This document shows positions 3,001-42,622 of a stretch of DNA of 53,703 nucleotides, piece by piece. Position numbers and translations under genes: made by a program. Position 1 is the first letter of the stretch; each line of letters begins with the position of its first letter. This DNA comes from an uncultured Eubacteriales bacterium (GTDB taxonomy: Bacteria > Bacillota > Clostridia > TANB77 > CAG-508), in the NCBI GenBank assembly GCA_963529075.1, contig CAURYI010000001.1, positions 1-53,703 on the forward strand. The letters run 5' to 3'. The notes under the pieces were generated by a model. That model was not told the DNA's origin, ran no database searches, and saw only the letters and a list, made by a program, of their open reading frames with translations.

Positions 3001-3976
3001 AAGTATGAAATTGAAGGAAGATAAAGTTATCACAGGCCACGTAGGCGATGCATATCAAACAACAATTCCAAACGATATAGATCAAAACGCTTATGAATTC
3101 GTAGAGGTAGAAGGAAATGAAAATGGAAAGATATCTCAAGAAGAAAAAGTAGTAACATATTTATACAAGAAGAAATTCGGAAAAGTAGTAGTAAGTTATG
3201 TAGAGAAATCAACAGGAATGAAATTACAAAATGACGAAGTAATAAATGGAAATATCAATGAGCCATATAATACAGAAGCAAAAGATATTGAGTATTATAA
3301 TTTAGTATCAACTGAAAAATCTGAAAACATTAAGCCAGTAATAACAGAAGAAGAACAAAAAATCACATATTATTATGAGAAGAAAGTTTTCAATATTGAA
3401 ATCGATAAAGAGCTAAAAGAAGCAACAATAGATGGAGAAAAGAGAACATTCAGAAATGGAAAATTCACAAAATTAGATATCCCAGTAAAGAAGATATTAA
3501 ATAGTGAAGTAAAAGTAAGATATTCAATCAATGTAAAAAATACTGGAGAAATCAAAGGAAGCATAGTAGTTCAAGAAAATATTCCAAAATACTTTACAAT
3601 GAACCCTTCAGAGAATCCAGATTGGAGAATCGAACATGGTAAAATTGTAAGCAAAAAAATAGAACTAAATCCAGGAGAAAGCAAAGAATTAAGTATCACA
3701 TTAAAGTGGACAAATTCAAAAGACAATTTTGGAACATTAGTAAATAAAGCAGGAATAGAAAAAACAGAGAACAATGCAGGATTCGAAGAAACAGACACCG
3801 AAGAAGAAAAGAAAGGAAAGAAACAACAAGCCACTCTAGTATTAGTACCAAAGACAGGGTTGGATATAAACAAACTATTACAAATGACAGGTGTTGGAAT
3901 CACATTAACAGCTTTAGTAGCAGCAATGGGATATACAGTATCAAGAAAAGTAAGAGATGAATATATCAATAATTAA
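2..3976 (+). CDS. Cell-wall-anchored surface adhesin, 5'-truncated by the window edge: 8 Cna-B-type repeats, 2 MucBP-like modules, LPXTG-type sorting signal
   Basis: The frame is open from nt 2, and the TTG at 17 lies inside a repeat. There are eight ~105-aa repeats with the Cna-B signature (VxKxWxDxxNxxxKRPxSIK...KY...YTxxE...KFY). Two modules resemble MucBP (VTVKYVLKS...YLYKKK and VVVSYVEKS...YYYEKK). The C-terminus reads LVPKTG, then a hydrophobic helix, then an RKVRDE tail. Confidence 0.85.
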   Translation, partial: NLSKTLNDSNNASRKRPVSIKYVLKNKETVVSEKVVAGNETTDADWTHTFTGLAKYDNHNDEIKYTLEEKEANEGELKFYTKQVNGDYKAGFNVVNTFKVPDERINVRVSKIWNDDSNSRSKRPTSIKYIITDGQNTVEQIVTGESNTNTNWSYEFSNLVKYEANTGNEISYTVREEEVNLGDLKFYESTISGDYKAGINVTNKFVVPNDKVTPRVKIIWEDNNNNGNKRPSNVKIIVKDKEGKVVKEGNVTGNPTDEEWNKVFENVPKYDKDGNPIPYTVEEKPNSPDDFKFYKITVTGDIDKGYEVTNKFEVPDEKVTVKVKKVWEDNNNTASKRPAAIKVQLKNNAAIVREERVTGSGSEWKYTFENVSKYNGYGDVINYSIEEIEDKTEDLKFYEKKITGDKDSEYVITNKFKVPDEKIDINVNKTWEDNNNSANKRPTSIKYILKGGAAEVEELVSGNRTTDANWSYKFKNVNKYDNNANEIQYTLEEQEVNDNDLKFYTKKVSGEQTNGFAVVNKFIVPNEKVTVKVSKTWDDNNNTANKRPSSIKYEVLNGNNQIVASKVQSGNKNTADGWSHNFELDKYDALGNEEVYNVQEVEVNQNDFKFYRATVSGNYKSGFTVTNKFEVPNEEVTPKISVEWKDNSNQNNKRPTSVKIQVKDEEGKIVKESPVTGLITEESWKKIFENVPKYNKNGDPINYTITEEPNNPNDLEFYTTTTSGNITNGFKVLNTYAVPGTTINLKANKKWVDGHNAKNKRPKSIKIEVRNNNEVIADKEVKGDRTTDANWEVEFKNLPKYNPTTGTENVYTVTESEVNPGELMYYTSAVNGNTITNTIKPLTEGKIEDSKVEKESTLAKITKVDEIVPYTITYKGKIKEYMGDAVVKIVDELPFKLDLSKSNIMDGSYDDESKTITWTENLHNIDTHNNGDKEVEIKKEIKLVYKDFKISEDNLKVTNKVRTEISLKELNKKITENNTKEIPAEISSKVTVKYVLKSNRSMKLKEDKVITGHVGDAYQTTIPNDIDQNAYEFVEVEGNENGKISQEEKVVTYLYKKKFGKVVVSYVEKSTGMKLQNDEVINGNINEPYNTEAKDIEYYNLVSTEKSENIKPVITEEEQKITYYYEKKVFNIEIDKELKEATIDGEKRTFRNGKFTKLDIPVKKILNSEVKVRYSINVKNTGEIKGSIVVQENIPKYFTMNPSENPDWRIEHGKIVSKKIELNPGESKELSITLKWTNSKDNFGTLVNKAGIEKTENNAGFEETDTEEEKKGKKQQATLVLVPKTGLDINKLLQMTGVGITLTALVAAMGYTVSRKVRDEYINN

Positions 3977-9603: not shown

Positions 9604-9699
9604 CTATTTTATTAAAATATTATAAAAAAATGGATTTGACAATAAGATACCATAATGGTAAATTTATAAAGAATACATAAATTGGAGGAAATTTATTTA

Positions 9700-11094
9700 A
9701 TGCAAGATACAAATGATAAAATGAATGAATTAATGGATGCATTTAATAAAAAGTTAAAAACTAGAAGAATATTATTAATGTCTAAATATACAGATATCAC
9801 AGAAGCACCAATCAGCGTACAGGATGAAATATATACAATACAGACATTATTAAATATATTAGAAGTATCAGAATCGGATTATACAACGGAAAAAGTAAAA
9901 TCTTCAAATGAAATAGAAATAAATGTTACATTAATAGAAGAATATGAAAATAATCTGAAAAAATTTGATATTTTTAAAGAAATGAACTCATCAGACGTTT
10001 CAAAAAAAGATGAAAGCGAATATATCAAAAAAGAACAAGAAAAAATCAATAAAATACCCGTAAATCAATACACAATAAGAAAACAATTAATAAAAGAAAA
10101 ATATACAAACATCGAAAATGCACCACAAAGTATAATTGATGAATATAAAAATCTAGAAATTTTAATAAAGATGATTAATGAATCTAATAATGATGGGATT
10201 GAAAAAGAAGAAGCAGAAGATCAAACTAAAATTGATGTAAAAAATATAAAAATTTATAATTCAATATTGAAAATCAATAAAACATTACAAATTATAAATT
10301 CAAGACATTTACAACCACCAAAAAAAGTGATTGATGAAGCAATTGATAAAAAAATAGATGAACAAATAAATTCAATTCCAAATGATAGAGAAGAATTAAA
10401 AAGAAAAATCAGAGAAAATGAATTAAGAATAGATGCAATAACAAAATCATCAAAAATGATTTCGGATATAGATCAAACAATAAATATAAACACTGAAATT
10501 AAAAATTCAGTAAATTCAGAAGTAAAAGTAGAACAAAACATTAACATATCAGAACCACAAATTAAAGTAGAAAACACATCAGCTCCAATAGTTGAAGAAA
10601 TAAAAATCGAAAAAACAATAGAACCATTAGATGAGCAAGTTATTGATATCATTGATGCTGAACATGATGAAACAAATATAATAGAGCAAATATACCAAGC
10701 ACATTTAAAAATAGAAAATAAGCCGGACAAAGATGGTATAATTGTAGCAAAATCAGTACCTGTTGAGAAAAAAGAAGTTAAATTAGATGAAAAAGAAACT
10801 AAAGTAGAAGAAAAGAAATCACAAACACCTGAAAAAGTAGTAATGGCAGTACAAACCTTAATAAAAGGACAAGAAAAAACTTTAATTTCACCAGAATACA
10901 TTAAACAAAATGAAAAATCAGAAATATTCAAAAAAGTAGAAAAAGATATTAAAGAAGAGAAAGTATCAGTAAATCCAGTAAAGACAATAACAAAAAAAGA
11001 TTTAGAAGCAATATATGGACAAAGAAAAAATGAACCAGGATTTTATGAAGCAATTGATATAGTTAATGAAGCACTAGAAAAAGATAAAAAATAA
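9700..11094 (+). CDS. Hypothetical K/E/I/N-rich protein (464 aa)
   Basis: ATG at 9700 is preceded by GGAGGA at an ideal distance, so it is preferred over the track's TTG at 9682. Internal duplication: KYTDITEAPISVQDEIYTIQTLLNILE versus KYTNIENAPQSIIDEYKNLEILIKMINE. Confidence 0.6.
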   Translation: MQDTNDKMNELMDAFNKKLKTRRILLMSKYTDITEAPISVQDEIYTIQTLLNILEVSESDYTTEKVKSSNEIEINVTLIEEYENNLKKFDIFKEMNSSDVSKKDESEYIKKEQEKINKIPVNQYTIRKQLIKEKYTNIENAPQSIIDEYKNLEILIKMINESNNDGIEKEEAEDQTKIDVKNIKIYNSILKINKTLQIINSRHLQPPKKVIDEAIDKKIDEQINSIPNDREELKRKIRENELRIDAITKSSKMISDIDQTININTEIKNSVNSEVKVEQNINISEPQIKVENTSAPIVEEIKIEKTIEPLDEQVIDIIDAEHDETNIIEQIYQAHLKIENKPDKDGIIVAKSVPVEKKEVKLDEKETKVEEKKSQTPEKVVMAVQTLIKGQEKTLISPEYIKQNEKSEIFKKVEKDIKEEKVSVNPVKTITKKDLEAIYGQRKNEPGFYEAIDIVNEALEKDKK

Positions 11095-11111
11095 AACAAA
11101 AGAGGGTTAAT

Positions 11112-11582
11112 ATGAAATTAGCTTATAGACAAGCATGTAGTGAAGTAATTGAAGTCCTAAAACATACAGATTATTCAATAATAAACAATATTCCAATTAC
11201 ATTTATTAAATTTTTAAAAGTAAATTCAGATATGTATTATAAATCAAATATTGATTTTACATCAGAAGATTGGGCAAGCCAAATAAAGCCAGAAACAGGG
11301 TATTTATTATCAATAATGTATAGGGATTATGCAATAAATATGAGAGAAAGAGCCATATTAATGGGTTTGGAAGAAATAAACAAACAAGACATCATGGACA
11401 GAAAAGCTCAATTTGCAAAAAAAGAAGAAGAAAGCAAAACACAAAAATTTACTTCAAATGAAACATTATCAAAAAGAGAACCAATGGACCTAGCACTAAT
11501 AGATAAAGTTCCGTGGTACAAAAAACTCTATAAAAAAATATTCAAATTATTCAAAAACAAAGAAGATAGACATGCATTTTAA
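11112..11582 (+). CDS. Hypothetical protein (156 aa)
   Basis: GAGGG RBS. Lies 17 nt after the preceding gene and is followed by a strong terminator. Confidence 0.6.
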   Translation: MKLAYRQACSEVIEVLKHTDYSIINNIPITFIKFLKVNSDMYYKSNIDFTSEDWASQIKPETGYLLSIMYRDYAINMRERAILMGLEEINKQDIMDRKAQFAKKEEESKTQKFTSNETLSKREPMDLALIDKVPWYKKLYKKIFKLFKNKEDRHAF

Positions 11583-11584
11583 TA

Positions 11585-11611
11585 AAAATCCGGGAGATTC
11601 CCGGATTTTTT
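11585..11611 (+). terminator. Rho-independent terminator
   Basis: AAAATCCGGGA-GAT-TCCCGGATTTT followed by a T run. Confidence 0.85.
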
Positions 11612-11623
11612 AAAATTCAAGTA

Positions 11624-11652
11624 TTGACTTTTTAATAAAAAAAGATTAAAAT
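11624..11652 (+). promoter_or_regulatory. Promoter of tRNA-Leu
   Basis: TTGACT-17 nt-TAAAAT, ending 13 nt upstream of the tRNA 5' end. Confidence 0.65.
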
Positions 11653-11665
11653 TAAAAACATAAAT

Positions 11666-11749
11666 GCGGATGTGGCGGAATTGGTATACGCGCTGGTCTT
11701 AGGAACCAGTGCCAACGGCGTGGGGGTTCGAGTCCCTTCATCCGCACCA
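11666..11749 (+). tRNA. tRNA-Leu (anticodon UAG), long variable arm, CCA encoded
   Basis: 84 nt. Acceptor GCGGATG/CATCCGC. Anticodon stem CTGGT/ACCAG with loop CUUAGGA. Class II variable arm. Confidence 0.9.
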
Positions 11750-12158
11750 AATAAGTATCTGTTCGAATTTTTTGGAACAGACAATATGAAAATCAATCAG
11801 TAATGGTTGATTTTTTTTATGCAAAAAAAGTCGTACAATTTTTAAAGAAAATGAAATTTTTTGAAATGAAGGTAATTAAAGAAGATTTGTGATTTGAGAG
11901 AAACTGAAAGAAAAGACTTTAATTTATATATTAGTTTTCAAATGTTGTATTAATTTTATCAATAGTATTATAAGAAAAATTGATAAAATTAATATCACAT
12001 AGACTGAAAAACATAAATTAATTATAGAAAATATTACTTTTCTAGTTTTTAATTATTTTAACGGAGTTACATAATAGACAAGTCATATGATTTATGTTAC
12101 AATATATATGTATACATATTGTATATGTTCCAAAATAATTTGTGGCGGAGGAAACAAA

Positions 12159-12683
12159 ATGGGAAAAGTAACCAAATTTATTGTCGCGTGGGCTATTATA
12201 GCAACAATTGTATTCTGTGCATGGTCGACTGTGCGGATTGTAAAATTTGTGCAGTTTGATATGAATTGCACTCAATACATCAAGAGAGCAGCAGATGCTA
12301 ATACGGTTGAGCTTGCAAAGGAAGAACTTGCTAAAGCGATTTCTTATGCAGAGAAAAACAACTTGACAGAAGGTGTTGTGTCTATATTTCTACATCAGCC
12401 TGAAAATGATGTAGGATACTGGTACAAGAATATGACTCAGTCGTATTCAGAACTTGACAAGTTATCGGGAAATGCAACTTCTCTTGAAAAATCAAATGTT
12501 CTTATGAGGTTAAGAGAAGCATTAACTGACAATAATGAGTCAGGAGTTTCTGTCACGATTCCTGACGGAATAAGTATTTACCCTAAAAATATTGTATATT
12601 TTTGGTGGGGAATGCTTTCTTTTGTATTTTGTTTATGTTTCTGGTGTATTGCAATTATAGCTTGGTGGTTTAATTGGAACTAA
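12159..12683 (+). CDS. Hypothetical membrane protein (174 aa; N- and C-terminal TM helices), compositional outlier
   Basis: ATG at 12159 follows a GGAGGA RBS. The track's 12087 start has no RBS. TM segments are FIVAWAIIATIVFCAW and FWWGMLSFVFCLCFWCIAIIAWWF. Sampled GC is about 37%. Confidence 0.65.
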   Translation: MGKVTKFIVAWAIIATIVFCAWSTVRIVKFVQFDMNCTQYIKRAADANTVELAKEELAKAISYAEKNNLTEGVVSIFLHQPENDVGYWYKNMTQSYSELDKLSGNATSLEKSNVLMRLREALTDNNESGVSVTIPDGISIYPKNIVYFWWGMLSFVFCLCFWCIAIIAWWFNWN

Positions 12684-12684
12684 T

Positions 12685-12732
12685 AGGAGACAGAATTGTC
12701 TCCTACCCCCTGTGAAAGCAGGGGGATTTTTT
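12685..12732 (+). terminator. Tandem hairpin terminator
   Basis: AGGAGACA-GAAT-TGTCTCCT is directly followed by CCCCCTG-TGAAAG-CAGGGGG and then ATTTTTT. Confidence 0.8.
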
Positions 12733-12949
12733 GTATTATCTTATTGAATTTTGTTTAAATAATGCTTTAATAAAGAAAAACAATTGATTTTTATAGGAAT
12801 TGCCAATAGAGCCAGCAAGCTGTAAATTTTTAAATTGTTGGTACCACATAAAAGTTCTTCGGAACTCTTTTTTTTGCCATCATTACTAAAAATAAATCAT
12901 TGTAAATAAAAAATAATTATGAGATAATATGAGCATAGGAGAACAAAAG

Positions 12950-13786
12950 ATGTTATTAGAGAGTTTTATAGCAATGTATGGAATTTCTTTTTTTGCGACA
13001 AAGGCAATATATACAAAATTAGATAAATCAAAAGAAATCCATGAAGAAGCTTTAAATCAAGGTTTATATCACATAACTAGTGAGGAAAATTGTGATAAGA
13101 TATTAGAAAGTGGCCATATAAAGCCAAGTAATATAATATCATCATTAGGCAGAAGGAAAACATTTTTTTTTGCAGGAACACCGAATTTTGATTCTCTATC
13201 TCAAAATGTAAGTATAACTCAATACGAATTTAATGCAATAAAAGTTAAACTAACAGAAGAGCAGCTAAAACATTATAAAGTAAGAAAATATATAGATAAT
13301 GCAGTAATATATGACGGGCAATGCAATTTAGATGATAAGCAAGTAGAAAAAGTAAAATTGGTTTTAGATATTGATAAAAATGGAAAAGTTTTTTCTAGAG
13401 AAAAAGGAAAAGACGAAGATTACCATCCAAGCAAAGAGCTTTTGGAAAAAATAAATTTATCTAAAACAGGAAGATTTAAAAATTCAATAATTCAAGTAGG
13501 AAAATATTTGGGGTCAATTGCAACAGGTATGTTAGAAATGGGAAAAGATGCAATCAATAATGTTTTTCCAAGAAAAGAAGAAGCAAAATTATTAGCAGAA
13601 AAAAATCTTGAAATAGAAAAAAGTGAAAAAGAAAAATATTTGGAATCATTAAGAATGCCAGAAACAATAATTAGAGAAAGTGAAAGAGCTGGAATAGAAT
13701 ATGCAAAAACAAAAGAAGAAAAAAATAATGACAAAGACCAAATAAGAGAAGTTAACTTGTTGGGAGATGTATATGAAAAAAATTAG
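12950..13786 (+). CDS. Hypothetical protein with a hydrophobic N-terminus and a LYHITS...ILESGHIKPS motif
   Basis: ATG at 12950 is preceded by AGGAGA, whereas 12929 lacks an RBS. The 3' end overlaps the next gene by 14 nt. Confidence 0.6.
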   Translation: MLLESFIAMYGISFFATKAIYTKLDKSKEIHEEALNQGLYHITSEENCDKILESGHIKPSNIISSLGRRKTFFFAGTPNFDSLSQNVSITQYEFNAIKVKLTEEQLKHYKVRKYIDNAVIYDGQCNLDDKQVEKVKLVLDIDKNGKVFSREKGKDEDYHPSKELLEKINLSKTGRFKNSIIQVGKYLGSIATGMLEMGKDAINNVFPRKEEAKLLAEKNLEIEKSEKEKYLESLRMPETIIRESERAGIEYAKTKEEKNNDKDQIREVNLLGDVYEKN

Positions 13787-14261
13787 CAAAATATTAATAT
13801 TAGGAGGGTCTGGTTCTGGAAAGACTACATTGGCAGACAAATTAAAAAAAATATTCGAATTGCCAATTATAAATCTAGATAATATAAATTATAAAAAAGA
13901 CTGGATTTCAAGGGATAAAAAAGAAAGAGATAATATCATTCAAAGAAAAATAAATGAAGATGAATGGATTATGGAAGGTGTATATAAATCAACCTTAAAG
14001 CAAAGGGCAGATGTTGCTGATTTAATTATATTTTTAGAACATCCTACATATTATTTGATATTTCGAATAATAAAAAGATACATATGTAATTTGGAAAAAG
14101 AAAAGAAAGAATTAGATGGATGTAAAGAGAGATTAAATTGGAATTTTATAAAATATACATTGCTTTTTAATTCAAAGAAAAAAAGTATATATGAAATACT
14201 TAATAAAGTTGAAAATATAGATAACAAATTAATTATATTCAAAAATGGTAGAATTTCTTAA
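13773..14261 (+). CDS. Small P-loop NTPase (adenylate-kinase-fold, topology-modulation-protein-like)
   Basis: N-terminal Walker A ILILGGSGSGKTTLA. About 162 aa. GGGAGA RBS 5 nt before the ATG at 13773. Confidence 0.65.
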   Translation: MKKISKILILGGSGSGKTTLADKLKKIFELPIINLDNINYKKDWISRDKKERDNIIQRKINEDEWIMEGVYKSTLKQRADVADLIIFLEHPTYYLIFRIIKRYICNLEKEKKELDGCKERLNWNFIKYTLLFNSKKKSIYEILNKVENIDNKLIIFKNGRIS

Positions 14262-14349
14262 AGAAAAGAATAAATAAAAATTACTTTAATTGATTTAAGA
14301 AATAAAAAAGATAATTGTAACTTAATATCAATATCGGAGGAAATAAATT

Positions 14350-15150
14350 ATGAATTATCAGGAATTAGAAATCAAGATATTAAATATCGATAAAGAACAA
14401 ATTAAAAAGAAATTATTAGAAATAGGAGCAGAATTTAAAAAAAGTCGAATACAAAAAATATACACATATGACTGTTATAGCCCAATTCTAATGTATAAAT
14501 TAGCGATTGGTGATTATAAAATAACTAATTCAAAAAATTCTTTACAAAAACTAATAAACATTATTTCTTATATCAAGCCAACATTTACTCAAGAAGAAAA
14601 AATATATTTTAAAGAAAAATTAGGATTTGATGAAATAGATAAATATATAGAAACTAATATAAATAATATTGATATTTCAAAACTAGAAGATGAAAAGTTA
14701 CTTAAGATCATTGAAGATACAGGCAATAGATTCTTCAAATGGATTAGATTAAGGCAAGATGGTGAGAAAGTAGAAATAACAATAAAATACATATATAGCA
14801 ATAAAGCAAATTATCAAATAGATGATGTCAAAGAGGTAGAAATTAACACAAACAATTTTGAAGTAGCAAATAAACTCATTGAAGAAATGGGATATTATAG
14901 AAAAAAACTAGCAGAGAAGAAAAGAGATACTTATTCATATAGAGGCATGGATATAGAAATAGATGAATGGCCACTTTTAGAACCATATATCGAAATAGAA
15001 GGACCCAGTGCTGAAGAAATATATGAACTAGCAAAATTGCTAGGGTATTCAAAAGAACAAACAAGAGTAATGAACACAGAAGATGTATATCTTGAAAAAG
15101 GCATAGACTTATCAAAATATGAAGAAATGACATTTAATATACAAAAATAA
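14350..15150 (+). CDS. CYTH-domain (triphosphate tunnel metalloenzyme / CyaB-like) protein with a large internal insertion
   Basis: N-terminal ELEIKIL strand, then WIRLRQDGEKVEITIK, then MDIEIDEWPLLEPYIEIEG (acidic CYTH strands). About 80 extra residues lie between strands 2 and 3. Confidence 0.6.
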   Translation: MNYQELEIKILNIDKEQIKKKLLEIGAEFKKSRIQKIYTYDCYSPILMYKLAIGDYKITNSKNSLQKLINIISYIKPTFTQEEKIYFKEKLGFDEIDKYIETNINNIDISKLEDEKLLKIIEDTGNRFFKWIRLRQDGEKVEITIKYIYSNKANYQIDDVKEVEINTNNFEVANKLIEEMGYYRKKLAEKKRDTYSYRGMDIEIDEWPLLEPYIEIEGPSAEEIYELAKLLGYSKEQTRVMNTEDVYLEKGIDLSKYEEMTFNIQK

Positions 15151-34746: not shown

Positions 34747-35181
34747 TTAAATCTTAGTGATCCTTACGGTATTTCTACCATGCTCCTGATTTAAGTTATC
34801 GGGAATCATGATAGAGATCATGGCAGGCTCATCAGGGAGCCTGAGAGAAATGATCTCTGAAGTTTCAGGTTCGTCAGGATCAAACATCACCGCAACATCA
34901 ACCATTGGTCTTTCTTCATCATCCTCATCCCATGCAGGTCTTATGCTAATATATAGCGCAATGAAGTCCTGATTCGAATCAAACGAGAAGCATAGGTTGA
35001 TGCTTCCACCAACTTGATCCGGGTAGATAACTAGGTCCGATGTTTTGTTTGCAGGATCAGCAAAGACATTAACAAGCAAACAATTTTCTGAATCCTCAAC
35101 AATTGGTAACGATACACCTGTATCATCACCGTTTTTTGGGTAGGCTAAAAAACTAGCCTTCCGGTTACCTAAGAAATACAT
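34747..35181 (-). CDS. Hypothetical acidic protein (144 aa), compositional outlier
   Basis: AGGAGG RBS (CCTCCT at 35188-35193). A sampled line is about 43% GC. I recognise no motif. Confidence 0.6.
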   Translation of the reverse strand: MYFLGNRKASFLAYPKNGDDTGVSLPIVEDSENCLLVNVFADPANKTSDLVIYPDQVGGSINLCFSFDSNQDFIALYISIRPAWDEDDEERPMVDVAVMFDPDEPETSEIISLRLPDEPAMISIMIPDNLNQEHGRNTVRITKI

Positions 35182-35281: not shown

Positions 35282-35333
35282 TTGACTTATAAAACAAAAA
35301 GTGATAAAATTTGAAAACGATTATCATTTTCAA
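35282..35333 (+). promoter_or_regulatory. Promoter (TTGACT-17-TAAAAT, TGn-extended) plus 23-bp palindromic Fur-family-type operator
   Basis: The -35 box is at 35282-35287 and the -10 box at 35305-35310. The palindrome TTGAAAACGATTATCATTTTCAA at 35311-35333 has 10 of 11 arm positions complementary and covers the predicted +1 site. Confidence 0.65.
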
Positions 35334-35353
35334 ATAATGCGCGGAGGAATAAA

Positions 35354-35752
35354 ATGAATAAGTATAATACAAAACAACAAGAGCTAATTTTAAATTATTT
35401 AAAACAAAATCATGAAAAAGACCTATCTGCACAAATGATAGTTAACTACATAATAAAAAAAAATAAACAGTGTAGCCAAACTACCGTATATAGGCAATTA
35501 AAAAGATTAGTAGAAGAAGGTGTTGTAGACAAGTACTATATCGATAGCAATTCTGTAAGTAGTTATTACAAATATATTAAAGACGACAAATGTAAAGAAC
35601 ATATCCACTTTAAGTGTGAAAAATGTGGAAAAACAATGCATTTAGAAAACAATGACTTAGAGAAAATCGAAACAGCATTAGAAAAAGAATATAAAGTAAA
35701 ATTAGATCCAAGCAAAACTGTTTTGTACGGGAAATGCAATGGATGTATTTAA
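35354..35752 (+). CDS. Fur-family metalloregulator (Fur/Zur/PerR subtype unresolved)
   Basis: 132 aa. Winged-helix segment TTVYRQLKRLVEEGVV. Structural Zn site HIHFKCEKCG...GKCNGC. Confidence 0.85.
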   Translation: MNKYNTKQQELILNYLKQNHEKDLSAQMIVNYIIKKNKQCSQTTVYRQLKRLVEEGVVDKYYIDSNSVSSYYKYIKDDKCKEHIHFKCEKCGKTMHLENNDLEKIETALEKEYKVKLDPSKTVLYGKCNGCI

Positions 35753-35773
35753 TAAAAAAAGGGAGAAAGAAAA

Positions 35774-36718
35774 ATGAGAGTATCTTTTTTAGGAAAAGGT
35801 GGAAGTGGTAAAACAACATTATCAACTTCATTTATAAAATTTTTAGAAAATAGGGATGAAAAAGTATTAGCAATAGATGCCGATATAAATGTGCATCTAG
35901 GACAAAGTTTAAATATGGAAACTAAATATTTAGGAGATGATTTTGAAGAAATTTCAAAATATTTAGAAAGAAATAATAAAATAATTATAGGAACAACACC
36001 ACCAACAAAGGATAGCACATTTATTAAACCATCACTTGATGATGAATTTTTTAAGAAATTTGCAACATTTAAAAATGAAAAATTAGCATTATTAACAGTT
36101 GGAACATATACTGATAAAAATGTAGGATATGCATGCTATCACAGTCAATTAGGAAGTGCAGTTTTAATATATAATAGATTATTGGACAATGAACAGTTGA
36201 CAGTAATAACTGACTCAACAGCAGGAGTTGATAGTGTTGGAACAAGTATGTTCTGCGTTTCAGACATTAATGTTTTTGTTGTAGAACCAACAAAGAAAAG
36301 CATTGATGTATATAAAGATTTTGTAGAAATAACAAAAAAATATAAAATAAATAATTATGTAATAGGAAATAAGGTTAGAAATCAAGATGATATAGAATTT
36401 ATCAAGTCACAAATAGATGAAAAGAATATTTTAGGTTTTGTTGCAGATTCAGAATATCTAAGAAAATATGAACAAGGAAATGAAGAAGAATTTAATAACT
36501 TTGTTTTAAATAATAATGAAATAAATGAAAAGATATTTGAGCTATTAAAATCAACAAAAAAAGACTGGAATAATTATTATGAAATTCAAAAACAGGTATA
36601 TAAAGATGATTGTGGTGAGTGGTATAGCCAATTTTATAATAAAGATTTAACAGAATACATTGATCCAGAATTCAATTATGAGGAAGTGATAAGATGTTTA
36701 AATTTACACCAAAATTAA
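35774..36718 (+). CDS. CooC/MinD-type (SIMIBI) P-loop ATPase with a ~100-aa C-terminal extension
   Basis: Deviant Walker A FLGKGGSGKTTLS. AIDADIN segment. GYACYHSQLG sits where CooC carries its CxC metal motif. Confidence 0.75.
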   Translation: MRVSFLGKGGSGKTTLSTSFIKFLENRDEKVLAIDADINVHLGQSLNMETKYLGDDFEEISKYLERNNKIIIGTTPPTKDSTFIKPSLDDEFFKKFATFKNEKLALLTVGTYTDKNVGYACYHSQLGSAVLIYNRLLDNEQLTVITDSTAGVDSVGTSMFCVSDINVFVVEPTKKSIDVYKDFVEITKKYKINNYVIGNKVRNQDDIEFIKSQIDEKNILGFVADSEYLRKYEQGNEEEFNNFVLNNNEINEKIFELLKSTKKDWNNYYEIQKQVYKDDCGEWYSQFYNKDLTEYIDPEFNYEEVIRCLNLHQN

Positions 36719-38139
36719 ATCAAGAGACAAGGGATATAATTGAAAACAAAGAAAAATTAAAAGAATTAGCTAATTGCTATGGATCACCATTAAATATATT
36801 GTTTCCAAATGTAATGGATAAGAATATAAGTAATTTCAAAGAGACACTAAAGAAACATCACCTTTCTGGAAAAATATATTATGCACATAAATGCAACAAA
36901 TCCAATTCGTTTTTAAAGCAAGCATTACAAAACCAAATAAATGTAGATGTAGCTTCATTGGAAGAATTAAAATCAGCACTATCAAATGGGTTTACAGGAG
37001 ATAAAATCGAAGCAACAGGCCCTAAAAATGATGATTTTATTATTTTGGGAATAAGACATAACATTATTTTTAACGTTGATAATTTAGAAGAAATAAAGAA
37101 GATTAATTATTTCAAAGAAAAGATTCAAACAAAAAATAAAATAAGAATTTTATTAAGGTTAAACGGATTCAAGTCAGAAGAAACTAAAATTTTAAACAGA
37201 AATAGCAGATTTGGTACACCAAAAAGCCAAGTAAATAAATTGATAGAATATGCGCAAGAAAACGATAAAAATCTAGAAATAATAGGAATATCATTTCATT
37301 TAGACACAGTAAATGTAAAAGAAAAAATATTAGCAATAGAAAATTGTATTGAAATATTTGAAGAAATGTTTGAAAAAGGCCTAAATCCTTATGTTTTAGA
37401 TATTGGAGGCGGATTTAAAGTAAATTATATAGAAAGCCAAGAAGAATGGGATAACAGCATAAGTGAATTAAAGGAAGCAATATTATCGGGAAATAATGAT
37501 TTAACATGGAATAATACATCTTTTGGATTAAGAGTTGAAAAAGGAGTATTAAGAGGAATTTTAAATATTCATGATTATTACAATGAGATAACCGGAAACC
37601 AATTATTAGATGAAATATTGTCAAGTCGATTAACTAAATTTCAAAACAGAGAAATAGGTGAGATATTGAGTGAAAATATGATTGAACTATATATAGAGCC
37701 AGGTTGTAGTCTTTTAGATGGAGCAGGGATAAACATAGCAAAAGTGAATTTTGTAAAAGAAAATGAAAACGGAGATTATTTAGTTGGATTAGATATGAAA
37801 AGATCTGATTTATTAATTGGAGAACAAGAAATGTTTGTTGATCCAATATTAATAAGTGATTCAAAAGAAGAAAGTAATGGAAAGGGAGTATTCTTTATAG
37901 GAAATCTTTGTATGGAAAATGATATCATTTTTAAAAGAAAAATATTTACTGAAAAAATACCACAAAGCGGGGATTTAGTAGTTTTTGTAAATACTGCAGG
38001 ATATTTTATGGATTTTGAGCAGTCGCACACAATAAAACAAAAAATTGCCACAAAAATAATAGTAACTTTTGAAAATAAAAAAATAAATTTATATATGGAT
38101 GAACATTATGAACCATTGAAATGTTCAAAGGAGGAATAA
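36694..38139 (+). CDS. Fold-type-III PLP enzyme of the Orn/DAP/Arg decarboxylase family (LysA/SbnH-like)
   Basis: YAHKCNKS (PLP Lys), GISFHLDT, LDIGGGF, EPGCSLL, GNLCMENDI and NTAGYFMDF motifs. GAGGAAG RBS. Confidence 0.8.
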   Translation: MFKFTPKLNQETRDIIENKEKLKELANCYGSPLNILFPNVMDKNISNFKETLKKHHLSGKIYYAHKCNKSNSFLKQALQNQINVDVASLEELKSALSNGFTGDKIEATGPKNDDFIILGIRHNIIFNVDNLEEIKKINYFKEKIQTKNKIRILLRLNGFKSEETKILNRNSRFGTPKSQVNKLIEYAQENDKNLEIIGISFHLDTVNVKEKILAIENCIEIFEEMFEKGLNPYVLDIGGGFKVNYIESQEEWDNSISELKEAILSGNNDLTWNNTSFGLRVEKGVLRGILNIHDYYNEITGNQLLDEILSSRLTKFQNREIGEILSENMIELYIEPGCSLLDGAGINIAKVNFVKENENGDYLVGLDMKRSDLLIGEQEMFVDPILISDSKEESNGKGVFFIGNLCMENDIIFKRKIFTEKIPQSGDLVVFVNTAGYFMDFEQSHTIKQKIATKIIVTFENKKINLYMDEHYEPLKCSKEE

Positions 38140-38144
38140 ATTAA

Positions 38145-39473
38145 GTGTTATATAAGAGTATCACAGAATTAATAGGAAACACACCATTAATTGAAATAAG
38201 CAAAAAAATAACAAAATTAAAAAACATCAATGTATATGCTAAATGCGAATTATATAATCCATTTGGTTCACTAAAAGACAGAGCAGGATACGCAATGCTT
38301 AAAGATGAGATTCACAAATTAAAAGAAAATAATATGACAGTAATCGAGTCATCAAGTGGAAATACAGCCAAAGCATTACAAATTATATGCAGTATGAATG
38401 GAATTCCATTTAAAACTGTTACTAACAGAATAAAAATACCAGAAACAAAGGAAATTTTGAAAGTAGCTGGTGCAGAAATAGAAGAATTACCAGGACTATC
38501 AGAATGTCCAGATCCAACAGATCCAAATGACCCAGTTGCATATATTGAAAGAATTGTATCTGAAAATCCTAATACGTACTATCACACAAATCAATATACG
38601 AACTTAAAAAATCCTAAAGTACACTATGAACATACAGGTAAAGAAATATATGATGATCTTGGAAAAGTAGATTATTTTTTTGGAACTCTGGGGACAACTG
38701 GATCTTCAAGAGGAACAATTGAGTATCTATTAGAAAAAAATAAAAATTTAAAAAAGATTGGGATAATTGCAGAAAAAGGAGACACAATTCCAGGAATAAG
38801 AAATAAAGACGAAATGTACGAAGTAGGAATATTTAATAAATCATTATATGATGAAATAGTATTAGTTAATTCCGATGAAGCCATTGAAGAAATGCTAGTC
38901 CTTAATAGAAAATGTGGAATTTTAGGAGGACCTACCAGTGGAGCAGCATTTAAAGGAACATTAAAATATTTGAGAGAAATAGATGACAAGTTAAAAGAAC
39001 CAGCAAATGCAGTGTTTATAGCATGTGACAGAATGGAATGGTACATGTCATATATTAAGAAAAGAAGACCAGAAATATTTGATTCAGAAATAAAGAGAGA
39101 AACGATTCGAACATTAACAGAAGAAGATATGAAATATGCTAAAACAATAGATGTTAATAATGCAGAAGAATGGATTGAAAAAAACAAGCCAATCATAATT
39201 GACTTAAGGGGAAATTTAGCTTATAAAAATGGACACATAGCAAATGCTATCAATATTACAGATATCTTTTTTGAAGATTTAGTAGATAATGGTACGCCAT
39301 TTTCAAAAGAAAACTCAGTACTATTAGTATGTAGTATAGGGGATAAGTCAAAGAAATTTAGTAGTTTATTGAATAAAAAAGGAATGAATGTATACAGCTT
39401 AGAAAATGGAATGACAGCTTGGAGAGAAAATTCACTTCCAGTAAAAAGGAGTCTTAGAGAAGGAATAATATAA
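38145..39473 (+). CDS. Fold-type-II PLP enzyme (CysK/CysM/SbnA-like) fused to a C-terminal rhodanese domain
   Basis: TPLIEI, NPFGSLKDRAGY (PLP Lys), SSGNTAKAL, GTLGTTGSSRG and GGPTSGAAF motifs. These are followed by IIIDLRGNLAYKNGHIANAINI...LLVCSIGDKSKKFS...MTAW. GTG start after AAGGAGGA. Confidence 0.8.
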   Translation: MLYKSITELIGNTPLIEISKKITKLKNINVYAKCELYNPFGSLKDRAGYAMLKDEIHKLKENNMTVIESSSGNTAKALQIICSMNGIPFKTVTNRIKIPETKEILKVAGAEIEELPGLSECPDPTDPNDPVAYIERIVSENPNTYYHTNQYTNLKNPKVHYEHTGKEIYDDLGKVDYFFGTLGTTGSSRGTIEYLLEKNKNLKKIGIIAEKGDTIPGIRNKDEMYEVGIFNKSLYDEIVLVNSDEAIEEMLVLNRKCGILGGPTSGAAFKGTLKYLREIDDKLKEPANAVFIACDRMEWYMSYIKKRRPEIFDSEIKRETIRTLTEEDMKYAKTIDVNNAEEWIEKNKPIIIDLRGNLAYKNGHIANAINITDIFFEDLVDNGTPFSKENSVLLVCSIGDKSKKFSSLLNKKGMNVYSLENGMTAWRENSLPVKRSLREGII

Positions 39474-40729
39474 TGAAGACAAATGATTTCAAAATCAATG
39501 CAAATAATATAAGCACAGAAAAAATAAGACAAATGGAAGAATTACGAAAAGATTTTCCAATATTAAATTCGAATATTGTTTATTTAGATAGTGCAGCAAC
39601 ATCACAAAAGCCACAACAAGTCATAGATGAAATTAATAAATATTATTTAGAATATTGTTCAAATATAGGCAGAGGGAATTATGATTGGGCAAGAAAAGCA
39701 AATAAAAAAGTAGAAGAAACAAGAAAAAAAGTTGCAAAATTTATTAATGCTAAAGAAAATGAAATAATATTTACGTCAGGAGCAACTGACAGTTCAAATT
39801 TAATTGCATATTCATACATGTTAAATAATTTACAAAACAATGATGAAATAATGATTTGTAAAGAAGATCATAAATCAACAATTCTTCCTTGGATGAATTT
39901 GATAAATATATTAAATAAATTCAAAATTAATATAATTGAAAAAGAAATATTGATAGATACTGAAGGAGATTACATAGAAGATAATTTAATCTCTAAAATA
40001 AATGAAAAAACAAAAATAGTGGTCTTAAGCCATATTCACAATGTATATGGTTTAGAAATGGAAATAGAAGAAATTGTACCCAGAATTAGAATGAAAAATC
40101 CAAATTCTAAAATAGTATTGGATTGTAGCCAAAGCGTAGGACATATCAATATAGATGTAAAAAAACTTGATGTAGATTTTGTGTATTTTTCAGGTCACAA
40201 AATGTTTGCAGAAACTGGAATTGGAGTATGCTATATTAAAAGTGAACATATAAAAGAAATGAAAGCTATTAAAGTAGGCGGTGGGCAAGCAAAAGAAGGA
40301 AAACTGAAAAACAAAGCTTCAGAAATACTAGAAGCAGGAACACAAAATATATCGGGCATAATTTCACTAGGAGCAGCAATTGATTATATAAATAAAATAG
40401 GGATTGAAGAGATAGAAAAATATATACTATACTTAACTAGATATTTATATGAACAGTTAAAATCAATCCCTAATATAGAATTTTCAAAAGGTATAGATAA
40501 ATATTCTTGCGTAGTAGGATATGGAATTGTAACATTTAAAATAGAAGGAATAGATAGTTCTGAATTAGGCGAAATTTTAAGTGATTATGGAATATATGTG
40601 AGAACTGGAGATTTTTGCAAAAGTGGCAAATCAGATGATTCGATAAGAGCTAGTTTACATGTATATAATAACAAAGAGGATATTGATAAATTAATAAATA
40701 TTATAAGATATATTTTGTCAGATCTATAA
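39473..40729 (+). CDS. SufS-like (class V, group II) cysteine desulfurase
   Basis: LDSAATSQKP, TSGATDSSNL, DCSQSVGH, FSGHKMF (PLP Lys), EAGTQNISG and RTGDFCKSG (catalytic Cys loop) motifs. The start codon overlaps the upstream stop codon. Confidence 0.85.
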   Translation: MKTNDFKINANNISTEKIRQMEELRKDFPILNSNIVYLDSAATSQKPQQVIDEINKYYLEYCSNIGRGNYDWARKANKKVEETRKKVAKFINAKENEIIFTSGATDSSNLIAYSYMLNNLQNNDEIMICKEDHKSTILPWMNLINILNKFKINIIEKEILIDTEGDYIEDNLISKINEKTKIVVLSHIHNVYGLEMEIEEIVPRIRMKNPNSKIVLDCSQSVGHINIDVKKLDVDFVYFSGHKMFAETGIGVCYIKSEHIKEMKAIKVGGGQAKEGKLKNKASEILEAGTQNISGIISLGAAIDYINKIGIEEIEKYILYLTRYLYEQLKSIPNIEFSKGIDKYSCVVGYGIVTFKIEGIDSSELGEILSDYGIYVRTGDFCKSGKSDDSIRASLHVYNNKEDIDKLINIIRYILSDL

Positions 40730-40871: not shown

Positions 40872-41174
40872 ATTACAATGATGGTAATGTTGGAGGTTTA
40901 AAATGAAAATGTTAAAAATTTAGGAGAAAAAATATACCTAGATTCAGGAACATTAACACCGCTTTTGAAAAAGTTAGAACATTAAGGATATTTAAAACGC
41001 GAAAAAGCAAAATAAGACGAAAGAAATTTATTAATAACTCTAACACCAGAAGGTAAAGCGTTAAGGGAAAAAGCAAAACACATACCAATTGAAATGATGA
41101 ATTGCATAAACTTACCATTTGACGAATTAATAAAATTAAAAAATACATTAAATAAAATTATTGGAGAAGAATGA
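40872..41174 (+). pseudogene. Decayed OhrR/MarR-family regulator
   Basis: The frame ending at the TGA at 41172-41174 reads [69 protein letters not shown]...LNKIIGEE. In-frame TAAs are at 40899, 40983 and 41013, with more further upstream. Confidence 0.75.
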
Positions 41175-41725
41175 TGAATATATATGATTATAAAGTAGAA
41201 AAGCCAAATGGAGAATATTTAAATTTAAAGGATTTAGAAGGAAAAGTAATATTAATAGTAAACACGGCAACAGGCTGTGGTTTTACACCACAATATAAAG
41301 AATTAGAAGAAATGTATGAAAAATTTCATGATAAAGGTTTGGAAATAATTGACATACCATGTAATCAATTTGCAGGACAAACACCTGGAACAGATGAAGA
41401 AATACATGAATTTTGCGTATTAAAATATAATACAAAGTTTGAACAAATGAAGAAAACAGACGTAAATGGAGAAAATGCAATTGAGCTATTCAAATATTTA
41501 AAAAGCCAAAAAGGATTTGAAGGATTCGGAAATGGGCCAAAAGCATTAGCAATCTCAGTAATGCTAAAATCAATTGACAAAGATTATAAAAATAATCCAG
41601 AAATCAAATGGAATTTTACAAAATTTTTAGTAGACAGAACAGGAACAGTTGTAGAAAGATTTGAACCAACACATAATATGAAAGATGTAATGAAAAAAGT
41701 AGAAAAATTGATAGAAGGTGAATAA
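41171..41725 (+). CDS. Glutathione peroxidase-family thiol peroxidase
   Basis: NTATGCGFTPQY and WNFTKFLVDR motifs. 184 aa. The start may be the second ATG at 41174. Confidence 0.88.
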   Translation: MMNIYDYKVEKPNGEYLNLKDLEGKVILIVNTATGCGFTPQYKELEEMYEKFHDKGLEIIDIPCNQFAGQTPGTDEEIHEFCVLKYNTKFEQMKKTDVNGENAIELFKYLKSQKGFEGFGNGPKALAISVMLKSIDKDYKNNPEIKWNFTKFLVDRTGTVVERFEPTHNMKDVMKKVEKLIEGE

Positions 41726-42622
41726 ATGGAACAATTCGATATAATTATAATAGGTGCAGGAACAGCGGGAATGACAGCAGGAATATATGCAGCAAGAGCA
41801 AATAAGAAAACATTAATTTTAGAAGGTAAAAACTATGGTGGGCAAATAATAAATACGCCAGATATTGAGAATTTTCCAGCATTAAACCATATTTCAGGAA
41901 TTGAATATGCAACTAATTTATATAATCAAGTAAAAGACTTAGGCGTAAGTTATAAGAGGGAAGAGGTTCAAAATATAACTGAAGATAGAGTAGTTACAAC
42001 AAACAAAAATCAATACCAAGCAAAAGCAGTTATAATCGCAACAGGAACACAAAACAGAAAGCTTGGTTTAGAAGGAGAAGATAATTTAGTAGGTAGAGGT
42101 ATCTCGTATTGTGCAACATGTGATGGAAGATTCTATAAAGGTAAAAATGTGGCCGTTATAGGTGGTGGAAATACTGCAATTGAAGATGCAATTTATCTAT
42201 CAGATTTAGCAGATAAGGTATATTTAATCCATAGGAGAGAAGGTTTTAGGGCAGATCAAAAAGCTATAGAAATATTGAAATCAAAAGAAAATGTGGAATT
42301 TATTTTAAATAATAAACCACATAAACTAATTGCAGAAAACAAACTTACAGGATTAGAAATAATAAATAACGAAAATGAGATAACCAAGATTGATATTTCA
42401 GGAATATTTATTGCAATTGGACAAATACCAAATACAGAAATATTTAAAAATTTCATAGATTTAAATGAATCAGGTTATATAAAATCAAAAGATGGAGTGC
42501 ATACAAATATGGATAAGATATATGTAGCAGGAGATGTCAGAGAAAAAGAATTAAGACAATTAATAACAGCAGCTTCTGATGGAGCAATTGCGGCAAACAC
42601 AGCAATAACAGAGATTCAATAA
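41726..42622 (+). CDS. trxB: Thioredoxin-disulfide reductase
   Basis: GAGTAG FAD motif, redox CATCDG, GGGNTA NADPH motif. 298 aa. Confidence 0.9.
   Translation: MEQFDIIIIGAGTAGMTAGIYAARANKKTLILEGKNYGGQIINTPDIENFPALNHISGIEYATNLYNQVKDLGVSYKREEVQNITEDRVVTTNKNQYQAKAVIIATGTQNRKLGLEGEDNLVGRGISYCATCDGRFYKGKNVAVIGGGNTAIEDAIYLSDLADKVYLIHRREGFRADQKAIEILKSKENVEFILNNKPHKLIAENKLTGLEIINNENEITKIDISGIFIAIGQIPNTEIFKNFIDLNESGYIKSKDGVHTNMDKIYVAGDVREKELRQLITAASDGAIAANTAITEIQ

Follow-up and report, generated by a model that had tools for sequence, protein, structure and literature searches.

The window analysed here, a stretch of 53,703 nt from a contig of an uncultured Eubacteriales bacterium (CAURYI010000001.1), contains at 35282-40729 a block of five genes that encode a Fur-family repressor, a CooC/MinD-type P-loop ATPase, a LysA-like decarboxylase dependent on pyridoxal 5'-phosphate (PLP), a fusion of a PALP (cysteine-synthase-like) domain with a rhodanese, and a SufS-type cysteine desulfurase. 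This block is a single operator-gated operon, and its three PLP enzymes form a cassette that is conserved as a unit across phyla. We consider it likely that the operon is a metal-starvation operon controlled by its Fur-family regulator, with zinc as the likeliest signal, and we regard the chances that it serves the biosynthesis of a ligand under such starvation as about evenly balanced. The initial annotation of this DNA, made from the letters alone, could not assign the block to a characterised pathway, and neither could we: no description of the cassette was found in NCBIfam release 20, in public protein names or by full-text literature searches, and it goes without mention in a Zur-regulon review, in regulon-guided genome-mining work of 2025 and in Streptomyces work of 2026. 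The public names of the five proteins are generic, and NCBIfam holds no specific model for any of them.

The five genes are co-directional and tightly coupled: 21 nt separate the first from the second, the second and third overlap by 25 nt, 5 nt lie between the third and fourth, and the stop of the fourth shares one base with the start of the fifth (TAATG); translation of the open reading frames (ORFs) reproduced the coordinates and junctions given for them earlier. A purine-rich ribosome-binding site precedes each of the five starts, terminator-like sites were not found inside the block, and its GC content of 25-30% is the same as that of the flanking DNA. An Rfam scan of the window returned tRNAs only, with no riboswitch 5' of the operon. 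The promoter that had been claimed, TTGACT-17-TAAAAT, is present at its place and additionally carries a TG extension of the -10 element. Promoter-like hexamer pairs are not enriched as a class in this AT-rich DNA (45 observed in the window vs 47 expected from shuffled sequence); we take this one seriously because it lies in the sole intergenic gap 5' of the operon and abuts a palindrome. The latter does follow the promoter directly, as had been noticed, but its length had been put at 23 bp, whereas its true extent is 27 bp (13-1-13). Its 23-bp core occurs a single time in the window, against 0.02 occurrences expected by chance, and the full operator resolves into two overlapping 7-1-7 Fur-family boxes, offset by 6 nt, with TGAAAA/TTTTCA arms of the Zur-box type. 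The same 21-bp layout of overlapping boxes recurs at position 2814 of a Streptomyces locus (L018; related loci are designated by such numbers). As the Fur-like gene is the first of the operon, it would be autoregulated.

Profile searches placed the five proteins in the Pfam families that had been predicted for them (FUR, CbiA/AAA_31, Orn_Arg_deC_N, PALP plus Rhodanese, and Aminotran_5), and all quoted motifs are in the translations: YAHKCN, LDIGGGF, EPGCSL and GNLCMEND; SLKDR, SSGNTA, GTLGTTGS and LLVCSIGDKS; SGHKM and RTGDFC; and GKGGSGKTT. An initial homologue search returned only copies at least 98% identical, all from one species that is common in public metagenomes. An exhaustive search of 1.84 billion representative proteins revealed a family of full-length PALP-rhodanese fusions at 37-52% identity to the window protein. 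We then scanned one genome per species with an alignment of 30 fusion sequences and retained the best 80 loci, which stem from actinomycetes (Streptomyces, Actinoplanes and Nocardia), from Clostridia-type metagenome-assembled genomes (MAGs), four Patescibacteria, two Micavibrio, a cyanobacterium, a Bdellovibrionota MAG and other alphaproteobacteria. The LysA-like gene adjoins the fusion gene in all 80 loci, and in 79 of them it is on the same strand and ends no more than 120 nt upstream. A cysteine desulfurase gene is found in 76 of the 80, and a CooC-like ATPase gene in 14 (13 non-actinomycete loci and one of Streptomyces). In the cyanobacterium and one Micavibrio (L029 and L058), the SufS-type desulfurase is replaced by a NifS/IscS-type enzyme, a non-orthologous replacement which indicates that the desulfurase activity itself is required. 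A search of a plasmid collection gave two Streptomyces matches, and the DNA obtained around the better one is unannotated.

Most lineages other than that of the window have added a methyltransferase to the cassette. These enzymes belong to two unrelated families, which points to convergent recruitment. The sole methyltransferase of the window is encoded by a TehB-like gene, 30 kb from the operon. In a Micavibrio locus devoid of a desulfurase gene (L052, 6239-8414, - strand), genes for a flavin amine oxidase and a methyltransferase lie divergent from the decarboxylase-fusion pair, and the flavin amine oxidase arrangement recalls the Fda4/Fda3 route to diaminopropionate, which combines a PLP enzyme with an FAD oxidase.

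This conservation bears directly on the simplest explanation, namely that ordinary housekeeping lysA, cysK or cysM and sufS genes happen to lie side by side. Every protein does keep the full catalytic residues of its family, and the comparison of copies was confined to the window, so both points may be counted in favour of that explanation. Yet the NCBIfam equivalog scores are all far below their cut-offs: 132 bits vs 297.9 for the decarboxylase (TIGR01048, lysA), 167.3 vs 394.2 (cysM) and 146.5 vs 351 (cysK) for the fusion, and 355.9 vs 475.1 for the desulfurase (TIGR01979, sufS). Moreover, a substrate-binding segment of LysA is replaced in the decarboxylase (see below), no sufBCD, sufU or sufE genes lie nearby, a dedicated repressor is encoded in the operon, and the three genes occur together in Streptomyces, Nocardia, Patescibacteria, Micavibrio and a cyanobacterium. 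The synteny effectively refutes the housekeeping explanation, which we find scarcely credible.

What connects the cassette to metal starvation is chiefly the regulatory DNA and the company that it keeps. The Fur-like protein of the window has the structural CxxC...CxxC cysteines and a C80-x2-H83-x-H85 cluster, and Fur-family genes also stand beside the cassette in seven related loci (L002, L003, L005, L006, L008, L031 and L058). In Streptomyces coelicolor, the consensus derived from DNase footprints of Zur is the 7-1-7 repeat TGAAAATGATTTTCA (PMC2823685). Exactly this repeat lies 60-70 nt ahead of the Fur-like gene in the closest relatives of the window operon (L003 and L005); L002 has it with a single mismatch. 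Across 64 high-GC loci, we counted 47 Zur boxes with up to three mismatches, where 104 permuted palindromes gave 1.2 on average; at up to two mismatches, the numbers were 18 and 0.1. The enrichment in the actinomycete loci is about 40-fold. The boxes are not scattered but cluster directly 5' of the decarboxylase gene and directly 3' of the desulfurase gene.

The neighbours of the cassette in the actinomycete loci tell a similar story, as they comprise COG0523 CobW GTPases (12 loci), ZnuB-type permeases (10), importers of the SBP_bac_5 (Nik/Opp) type (9), ZnuA (8), a paralogue of ribosomal protein S14 (8), zur (7) and a His-rich small protein (6); znuC is also found beside the cassette. The gene order in individual genomes is suggestive as well. 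In Streptomyces L018, a Zur box, SBP5 importer genes and the cassette follow one another on one strand, and in the Patescibacteria locus L008 the genes for the ATPase, decarboxylase, fusion, SufS, Fur, ZnuA, ZnuC and ZnuB do the same. In Micavibrio, a Fur-family gene directly follows the fusion gene, and in an alphaproteobacterium (L069) the cassette is extended by an ABC permease whose His-rich loop is very long. The cultured clostridium Alkaliphilus metalliredigens QYMF (CP000724.1, about 1,737,211-1,742,189) carries ZnuC-ZnuB-ZnuA, then ATPase-decarboxylase-fusion-desulfurase, and then CbiM-CbiQ-CbiO. Overall, these data bear out the metal link that had been suggested for the block. Of the two signals proposed earlier for the Fur paralogue, metal or peroxide, the metal side is favoured: the repressor probably senses zinc, and a Zur type is most likely, judged by the operator and by the neighbours of related loci.

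Very His-rich sequences were observed beside the cassette. The FtsX-type permease encoded there in L069 (13868-15202) has a loop, some 60 residues long, in which His, Asp and Glu abound; a 100-aa protein of HGDHTDY-type repeats (L057, 13595-13897) is present in six Streptomyces loci; and a Micavibrio protein (L058, 5153-6238) has a His-rich tail.

The fusion protein offers a clue to the chemistry. Its PLP lysine (K44), the S70-S-G-N-T loop and the GTTGS glycine-rich phosphate loop are all present, the rhodanese cysteine is C396, and K44, C396, D353 and R355 are invariant in 30 aligned fusions whose identity to the window protein does not exceed about 50%. The AlphaFold2 model of the fusion is of high confidence (predicted local distance difference test, pLDDT, 90.4; predicted TM score, pTM, 0.83), except for a loop at residues 118-120 (pLDDT below 50) beside the invariant Cys121. 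When this model was compared with solved structures by Foldseek, the first four ranks had E-values of 1e-29, and the top matches were the synthetase of aspergillomarasmine A (AMA), 8H4H and 8H4Q, ahead of all CysK, CysM and CBS entries, with about 465 aligned columns that cover both domains. The family profile likewise matches the AMA synthetase chain (E 6e-51), which is deposited as 'Rhodanese domain-containing protein'.

AMA synthase of Aspergillus and Fda4 of Fusarium poae thus have the two-domain build of the window protein, with a rhodanese-like domain C-terminal to the PALP domain, although they are fungal and only about 21% identical to it. Both are PLP enzymes that form C-N bonds between O-phosphoserine and amino acids (Asp or Ala), AMA synthase condensing O-phosphoserine with L-aspartate; the AMA gene cluster consists of two genes, and only AMA synthase is named for the formation of toxin A and AMA from these precursors (PMC12751119). 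AMA binds Zn2+ with a dissociation constant of 0.2 nM, and otherwise only Ni2+ and Co2+ (PMC8319579), which fits the metal setting of the cassette. No decarboxylase, ATPase or Fur-family control is described for the fungal enzymes (PMC12751119, PMC8319579). The rhodanese and loop cysteines are invariant in the bacterial family, whereas the alignment with the fungal enzyme stops short of the rhodanese loop.

By sequence, the closest solved relatives of the PALP domain are CysM enzymes, so that the earlier description of a CysK-rhodanese fusion holds for the domain architecture but not for the PALP type. The 'IPGIR' loop of Escherichia coli CysM aligns with that of the window protein, in which R219 corresponds to E. 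coli R210, and both enzymes share a 'CDR..Y.S' motif; R219 would be compatible with the use of O-phosphoserine. Nevertheless, the protein misses the CysM equivalog cut-off, has an extra loop of about 30 residues holding the invariant cysteine, and is always paired with a decarboxylase in the cassette, all of which sets it apart from CysM. The mycobacterial CysM-CysO pair is a precedent for sulfur delivered to CysM on a carrier protein, with the difference that the carrier here would be the persulfide of the fused rhodanese, rather than a thiocarboxylate.

The decarboxylase, in turn, appears to have changed its substrate. K66, H202, GGG238-240, E335-P-G, C406 and Y437 are invariant in the family alignment, and the alignment of the family profile takes in the two LysA domains; the window protein additionally has an insertion of about 70 aa. 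The 'RPsLY' segment, which we take to be the part of LysA that binds the distal carboxylate of diaminopimelate, is replaced in the family, where D383-P384 is conserved instead. As a result of this replacement, diaminopimelate or lanthionine is unlikely to be the substrate; one that ends in an amine or another non-acidic group is more likely, as far as the alignment can tell. In the desulfurase, K243 is the PLP lysine, and C382 is the cysteine that forms the persulfide; it lies within RTGDFC, instead of the usual HHC form of the SufS motif. H133, D217, Q220, H242-K243, C382 and R392 are invariant in 17 cassette-linked proteins, and the NifS/IscS-type replacements, too, retain the acid/base histidine along with the PLP lysine and the catalytic cysteine.

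A combination of PLP enzymes of this kind has metal-related precedents in the [S,S]-ethylenediaminedisuccinate (EDDS) pathway of Amycolatopsis japonicum, with its Zur-regulated aes genes, and in SbnA/SbnH of staphyloferrin B synthesis, both of which are regulated by metal starvation. In these pathways, a cysteine-synthase-like PLP enzyme acting on O-phosphoserine and a LysA-like decarboxylase contribute to an amino-carboxylate ligand, and the EDDS pathway is moreover a precedent for discovery by way of Zur boxes. The cassette differs from them by the cysteine desulfurase and the fused rhodanese, and with the SbnA model TIGR03945 the fusion protein scores 164 bits against a cut-off of 350. An SbnB-type dehydrogenase, an IucA/IucC synthetase, the nicotianamine-synthase-like CntL and the opine dehydrogenase CntM were found neither in the window nor among the scanned recurrent neighbours of related loci, and SufE, SufU and SufBCD genes were not found in the window, in agreement with the initial annotation. 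An sbn-type or cnt-type pathway and SufBCD-linked Fe-S assembly were rejected for lack of these partners. Bypasses of methionine, thiamine, coenzyme A or lanthionine-peptidoglycan synthesis were also considered but found no support in the data, since in each case one or more of the conserved genes would have nothing to do.

The ATPase carries a MinD-type deviant Walker A motif (GKGGSGKT) and a C-terminal extension of about 70 residues, and its closest solved relative is the nickel-insertion factor CooC1 (3kje, E 9e-16). G118, C121 and H123 are invariant in 15 diverse members of the family, and this Cys-x-His is presumably the counterpart of the metal-binding Cys-x-Cys of CooC, as far as the CooC1 structure allows us to assume. 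A Cys/His motif and a His-rich tail are hallmarks of metallochaperones, and one paralogue ends in HHHHHH (the second ATPase copy of L069, 7439-8467). The protein differs from CooC in having CxH rather than CxC, and genes for CO dehydrogenase/acetyl-CoA synthase were found neither in the window nor in any related locus. Like the COG0523 zinc metallochaperones, the family occurs behind Zur-type boxes (17 nt downstream of one in the Streptomyces copy of L081) and next to Fur-family genes, although it does not belong to the G3E GTPases. We therefore regard a role as metallochaperone as probable on the strength of these sequence features.

This ATPase need not be a biosynthetic step, since it is also encoded next to Fur-family genes at places where decarboxylase and desulfurase genes are missing. 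Indeed, there are Fur-ATPase pairs devoid of PLP genes altogether. A sister subfamily of PALP-rhodanese proteins (about 480-520 aa, about 30% identical), in which C121, R219 and C396 are likewise invariant, is common in Patescibacteria. In all three contexts examined (L088, 5703-8491; L089, 6100-8575; L090, 5528-8437), its gene lies directly downstream of, and overlaps, a CbiA-type ATPase gene; a Fur-family gene is present in two of the three, and a decarboxylase or desulfurase gene in none. Given this translational coupling, the fusion protein is the first candidate for a client of the ATPase. The association of a Fur-family regulator, a CooC-like ATPase and a PALP-rhodanese protein would therefore be the oldest and tightest one, as it occurs without decarboxylase and desulfurase. 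Since the AMA cluster has only two genes, with AMA synthase as the sole named enzyme, a one-enzyme chelator synthase together with a metal-handling ATPase would make a coherent minimal system, and we read the operon of the window as an expanded version of this module to which two tailoring enzymes were added.

Two observations accompany these modules. In L086 (8597-10429) and L087 (8526-10479), a stand-alone Fur-family gene and a CooC-like ATPase gene are joined by a gene for a small protein of 130-142 aa; the two small proteins are homologous to each other (E 1e-16) and have an 'NCC' cysteine pair as well as a C-terminal cysteine, and no relation was found between them and the small ORF upstream of the window operon. 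Second, a YibE/F-like membrane protein is encoded near Fur-ATPase modules in L008 (13531-14670), L087 (17055-18185) and L090 (4368-5540), in the last case directly beside the Fur-family gene, and may be a candidate transporter of the metal or the ligand.

In the mechanism that we propose, the Fur-like protein would, as long as metal is sufficient, sit on the 27-bp palindrome across the -10 element and the transcription start and shut all five genes, its own included. Upon metal scarcity, the CooC-like ATPase would be made and would handle the metal ion, probably as a dimer, and the three-enzyme PLP cassette would be made along with it. The desulfurase would take sulfur off cysteine as a persulfide on Cys382 and hand it over to the fused rhodanese at Cys396, from where it might travel on through the mobile Cys121 loop. 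The CysM-like PALP domain, with Arg219 in the position of CysM Arg210, would turn O-phosphoserine into aminoacrylate, which would then capture either the relayed sulfur or, as in AMA synthase, the amine of an amino acid. Hence the sulfur-installation scheme of the initial annotation survives as one of two live chemistries, no longer as the only one, as the relatives AMA synthase and Fda4 form C-N bonds. Finally, the LysA-like enzyme would decarboxylate a substrate that bears no carboxylate at its distal end. The predicted product is a small ligand with nitrogen and sulfur donors, for which an aminothiol, a thioether-amine and a compound resembling the marasmines or EDDS are candidates, and which would bind zinc, possibly nickel or cobalt, and serve either as a scavenging metallophore or as a ligand for intracellular metal trafficking.

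Several observations weigh against parts of this interpretation and give room to others. To begin with the regulator, the Fur-like protein lies under every NCBIfam equivalog cut-off for Fur, Zur and PerR, its matches in the PDB to Fur, PerR and Zur are similarly weak, and its sequence is indistinct as to Zur, Fur, PerR or Nur type. The two boxes of the window operator deviate from the Zur box TGAAAATnATTTTCA by two and three mismatches, this consensus being actinobacterial and not clostridial. One alternative is an operon for peroxide or thiol stress, in which a PerR-like repressor controls the synthesis of a protective low-molecular-weight thiol tied to the neighbouring redox genes: a desulfoferrodoxin gene lies upstream, genes for glutathione peroxidase and thioredoxin reductase lie immediately downstream, and NCBIfam PerR models score about like the Fur models, all far under their cut-offs. 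We hold such an operon to be very improbable. The operator resembles the Zur box and not what we take to be the PerR box, TTATAATnATTATAA; the redox neighbours are conserved in no related locus, whereas zinc and metal genes are; and the gpx-trxB pair has a promoter-like site of its own and is separated from the operon by a decayed gene of MarR/OhrR type.

A further difficulty for zinc as the signal is a second class of operators, TGCAAAT-n-ATTTGCA, each half-site of which departs from the Zur box at a single base. It occurs in other lineages, 5' of the cassette or the ATPase gene in several Clostridia and Patescibacteria (L006, 7196; L007, 7406; L031, 7526 and 7560; L061, 7566; L085, 8948 and 14171; L087, 8983). 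Presumably, this box fits the nickel-responsive Nur consensus, which we assume to be TTGCAA-N5-TTGCAA. The same kind of pathway might accordingly serve nickel or cobalt in this organism, under a Nur-like regulator, and some evidence fits such a choice of metal: CooC1, the closest solved relative of the ATPase, inserts nickel; in A. metalliredigens, a TGCAA-N5-TTGCA-type box precedes both the cassette and cbiM of the cbiMQO genes that follow it; boxes of the TGCAAAT class lie 5' of the cassette in L006, L007, L031 and L061; the Streptomyces loci encode importers with SBP_bac_5 (NikA-type) proteins; and ligands of the AMA type also bind Ni2+ and Co2+ (PMC8319579). Against this, the arms of the window operator are TGAAAA/TTTTCA and not TGCAAA, the closest relatives have the exact Zur consensus, and the actinomycete neighbours are classic zinc-regulon genes. 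Nickel or cobalt thus retains a small share of our expectation, and we continue with zinc as the likeliest signal.

A second group of objections concerns the product. Metal transporters were not found in the window, and the canonical zinc-regulon genes that accompany related loci (znuABC, COG0523, zinc-free ribosomal paralogues) are likewise not present in the window. Because no exporter or dedicated importer lies in or beside the operon, a secreted metallophore is less supported for the organism of the window. A cassette-type methyltransferase of either family was not found in the window, and for this reason the product may differ from that of other lineages. The kinship with AMA synthase has its own limits, as the profile alignment ends before the catalytic loop of the rhodanese and does not cover the position of the cysteine, and AMA synthase and Fda4 form their C-N bonds without a desulfurase (PMC12751119), which speaks against the sulfur route. 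Lastly, O-phosphoserine and cysteine sulfur would together merely yield cysteine from cysteine, a futile cycle, so that at least one other substrate is needed. Either another acceptor or nucleophile is used, or the persulfide or thioether is retained, or the PALP domain forms C-N bonds and sulfur enters elsewhere.

Instead of making a ligand, the operon could be a zinc-sparing back-up, that is, a zinc-independent route of sulfur trafficking or cysteine formation that stands in for SufU or for MoeZ/CysO/Mec, with the ATPase allocating scarce metal to client proteins as COG0523 proteins do. Zur regulons typically encode zinc-independent paralogues, SufU, Mec and MoeZ are presumably zinc-dependent, and a ribosomal protein S14 paralogue and COG0523 genes do lie beside the cassette. 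The CysM-like PALP domain, including the loop that CysM uses for bulky sulfur donors, would suit such a route, which would also explain the lack of a transporter in the window operon, the occurrence of the ATPase with Fur-family genes away from decarboxylase and desulfurase, and the presence of the cassette in genome-reduced Patescibacteria, where core functions are expected. Still, a back-up of this sort leaves no role for the decarboxylase, whose gene lies beside the fusion gene in every one of the 80 loci, or for the recurrent methyltransferases, and Streptomyces genomes own zinc-independent CysK routes anyway. In addition, the Nik/Opp-type importers behind the same Zur box in several Streptomyces loci, as well as a chelator synthase as the best structural match, favour a ligand. 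For these reasons, we rate zinc sparing as unlikely, and turn back to the metal-starvation operon with a putative ligand as its product.

The features of the window discussed above and below are compiled in Table 1.

Table 1. Operon features and flanking genes, with positions in the window.
Feature	Position	Strand	Remarks
Sigma-70-type promoter TTGACT-17-TAAAAT, extended -10 (TG)	35282..35310	+	10/12 consensus matches
Operator palindrome ATTTGAAAACGAT-T-ATCATTTTCAAAT	35309..35335	.	13-1-13, one mismatch; overlaps -10 element and transcription start
Fur-family repressor gene	35354..35752	+	132 aa; Pfam FUR, E 1.9e-18
CooC/MinD-type P-loop ATPase gene	35774..36718	+	314 aa; Pfam CbiA and AAA_31
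LysA-like fold-type-III PLP decarboxylase gene	36694..38139	+	481 aa; Pfam Orn_Arg_deC_N
PALP-rhodanese fusion gene	38145..39473	+	442 aa; GTG start; Pfam PALP and Rhodanese
Group-II (SufS-type) cysteine desulfurase gene	39473..40729	+	418 aa; Pfam Aminotran_5, E 1.7e-102
Small acidic ORF	34747..35181	-	144 aa; divergent from operon; no Pfam match; possible accessory gene
Decayed MarR/OhrR-type regulator gene	40884-41174	+	C-terminal two-thirds readable; in-frame stop codons
Glutathione peroxidase gene (gpx)	41171-41725		follows the decayed MarR/OhrR-type gene
Thioredoxin reductase gene (trxB)	41726-42622		follows gpx
Giant surface protein, C-terminal part	17-3976	+	ORF runs off the 5' end of the window; MucBP and Cna_B repeats
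Six ORFs	9682-15150		about 156-464 aa; no Pfam match on record

Among the flanking genes, the small acidic ORF deserves attention, as pairwise comparison reveals a weak yet significant likeness to ORFs in the corresponding relative position of L003 (6477-7079, E 3e-05) and L006 (7224-7652, E 2e-04), with which it shares the N-terminal motif [SF]xxxY[PK]xxxD[DE]xG[VLT][SD]LP; it may be a sixth component of the system. At the 5' end of the window, the giant surface protein, which measures 5530 aa on the full 78-kb metagenomic scaffold, suggests by its MucBP and Cna_B repeats a host- or mucus-associated lifestyle of the source organism.

Both the enzyme families and the idea of a Zur-controlled small-molecule pathway are already known. 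What would be new, going by the sequences at hand, is the joining of a putative desulfurase-rhodanese sulfur relay to an AMA-synthase-like enzyme, the appearance of a CooC-like Cys-x-His ATPase in a Zur-type regulon, and a distribution over phyla that extends to the genome-minimal Patescibacteria. Acquisition and allocation of zinc by starving bacteria are key to the competition between host and microbe ('nutritional immunity') and to soil ecology, and to our knowledge few zinc-specific small-molecule systems have been described. The cassette is common: numerous Streptomyces, Actinoplanes and Nocardia have it, as do host-associated Clostridia, the predatory Micavibrio and Patescibacteria that keep very few biosynthetic genes. 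Its presence in cultured, genetically tractable organisms makes it directly testable; besides A. metalliredigens QYMF, candidates among cultured strains are Streptomyces scabiei ATCC 49173, S. viridochromogenes NRRL 3413 and Micavibrio aeruginosavorus. Its key fusion enzyme is a bacterial relative of the synthase for AMA, a zinc chelator studied against metallo-beta-lactamases. Identification of the product could reveal new metal-ligand chemistry and could supply biocatalysts for aminopolycarboxylate or aminothiol chelators, and the ATPases could emerge as another family of NTPase chaperones in the zinc regulon, the second after COG0523.

Taken at its broadest, the cassette might represent a very widespread, hitherto overlooked metal-starvation system, extending from Streptomyces to Patescibacteria, in which a Fur-controlled, CooC-like CxH metallochaperone is combined with a PALP-rhodanese counterpart of AMA synthase, and in which the desulfurase and decarboxylase of the window would give rise to a sulfur-containing zincophore or a zinc-trafficking thiol. 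We put forward this full version only tentatively and hold it to be rather doubtful as a whole; if true, bacterial zinc biology would gain both a chemically new class of metal ligand and a family of chaperones new to the zinc regulon.

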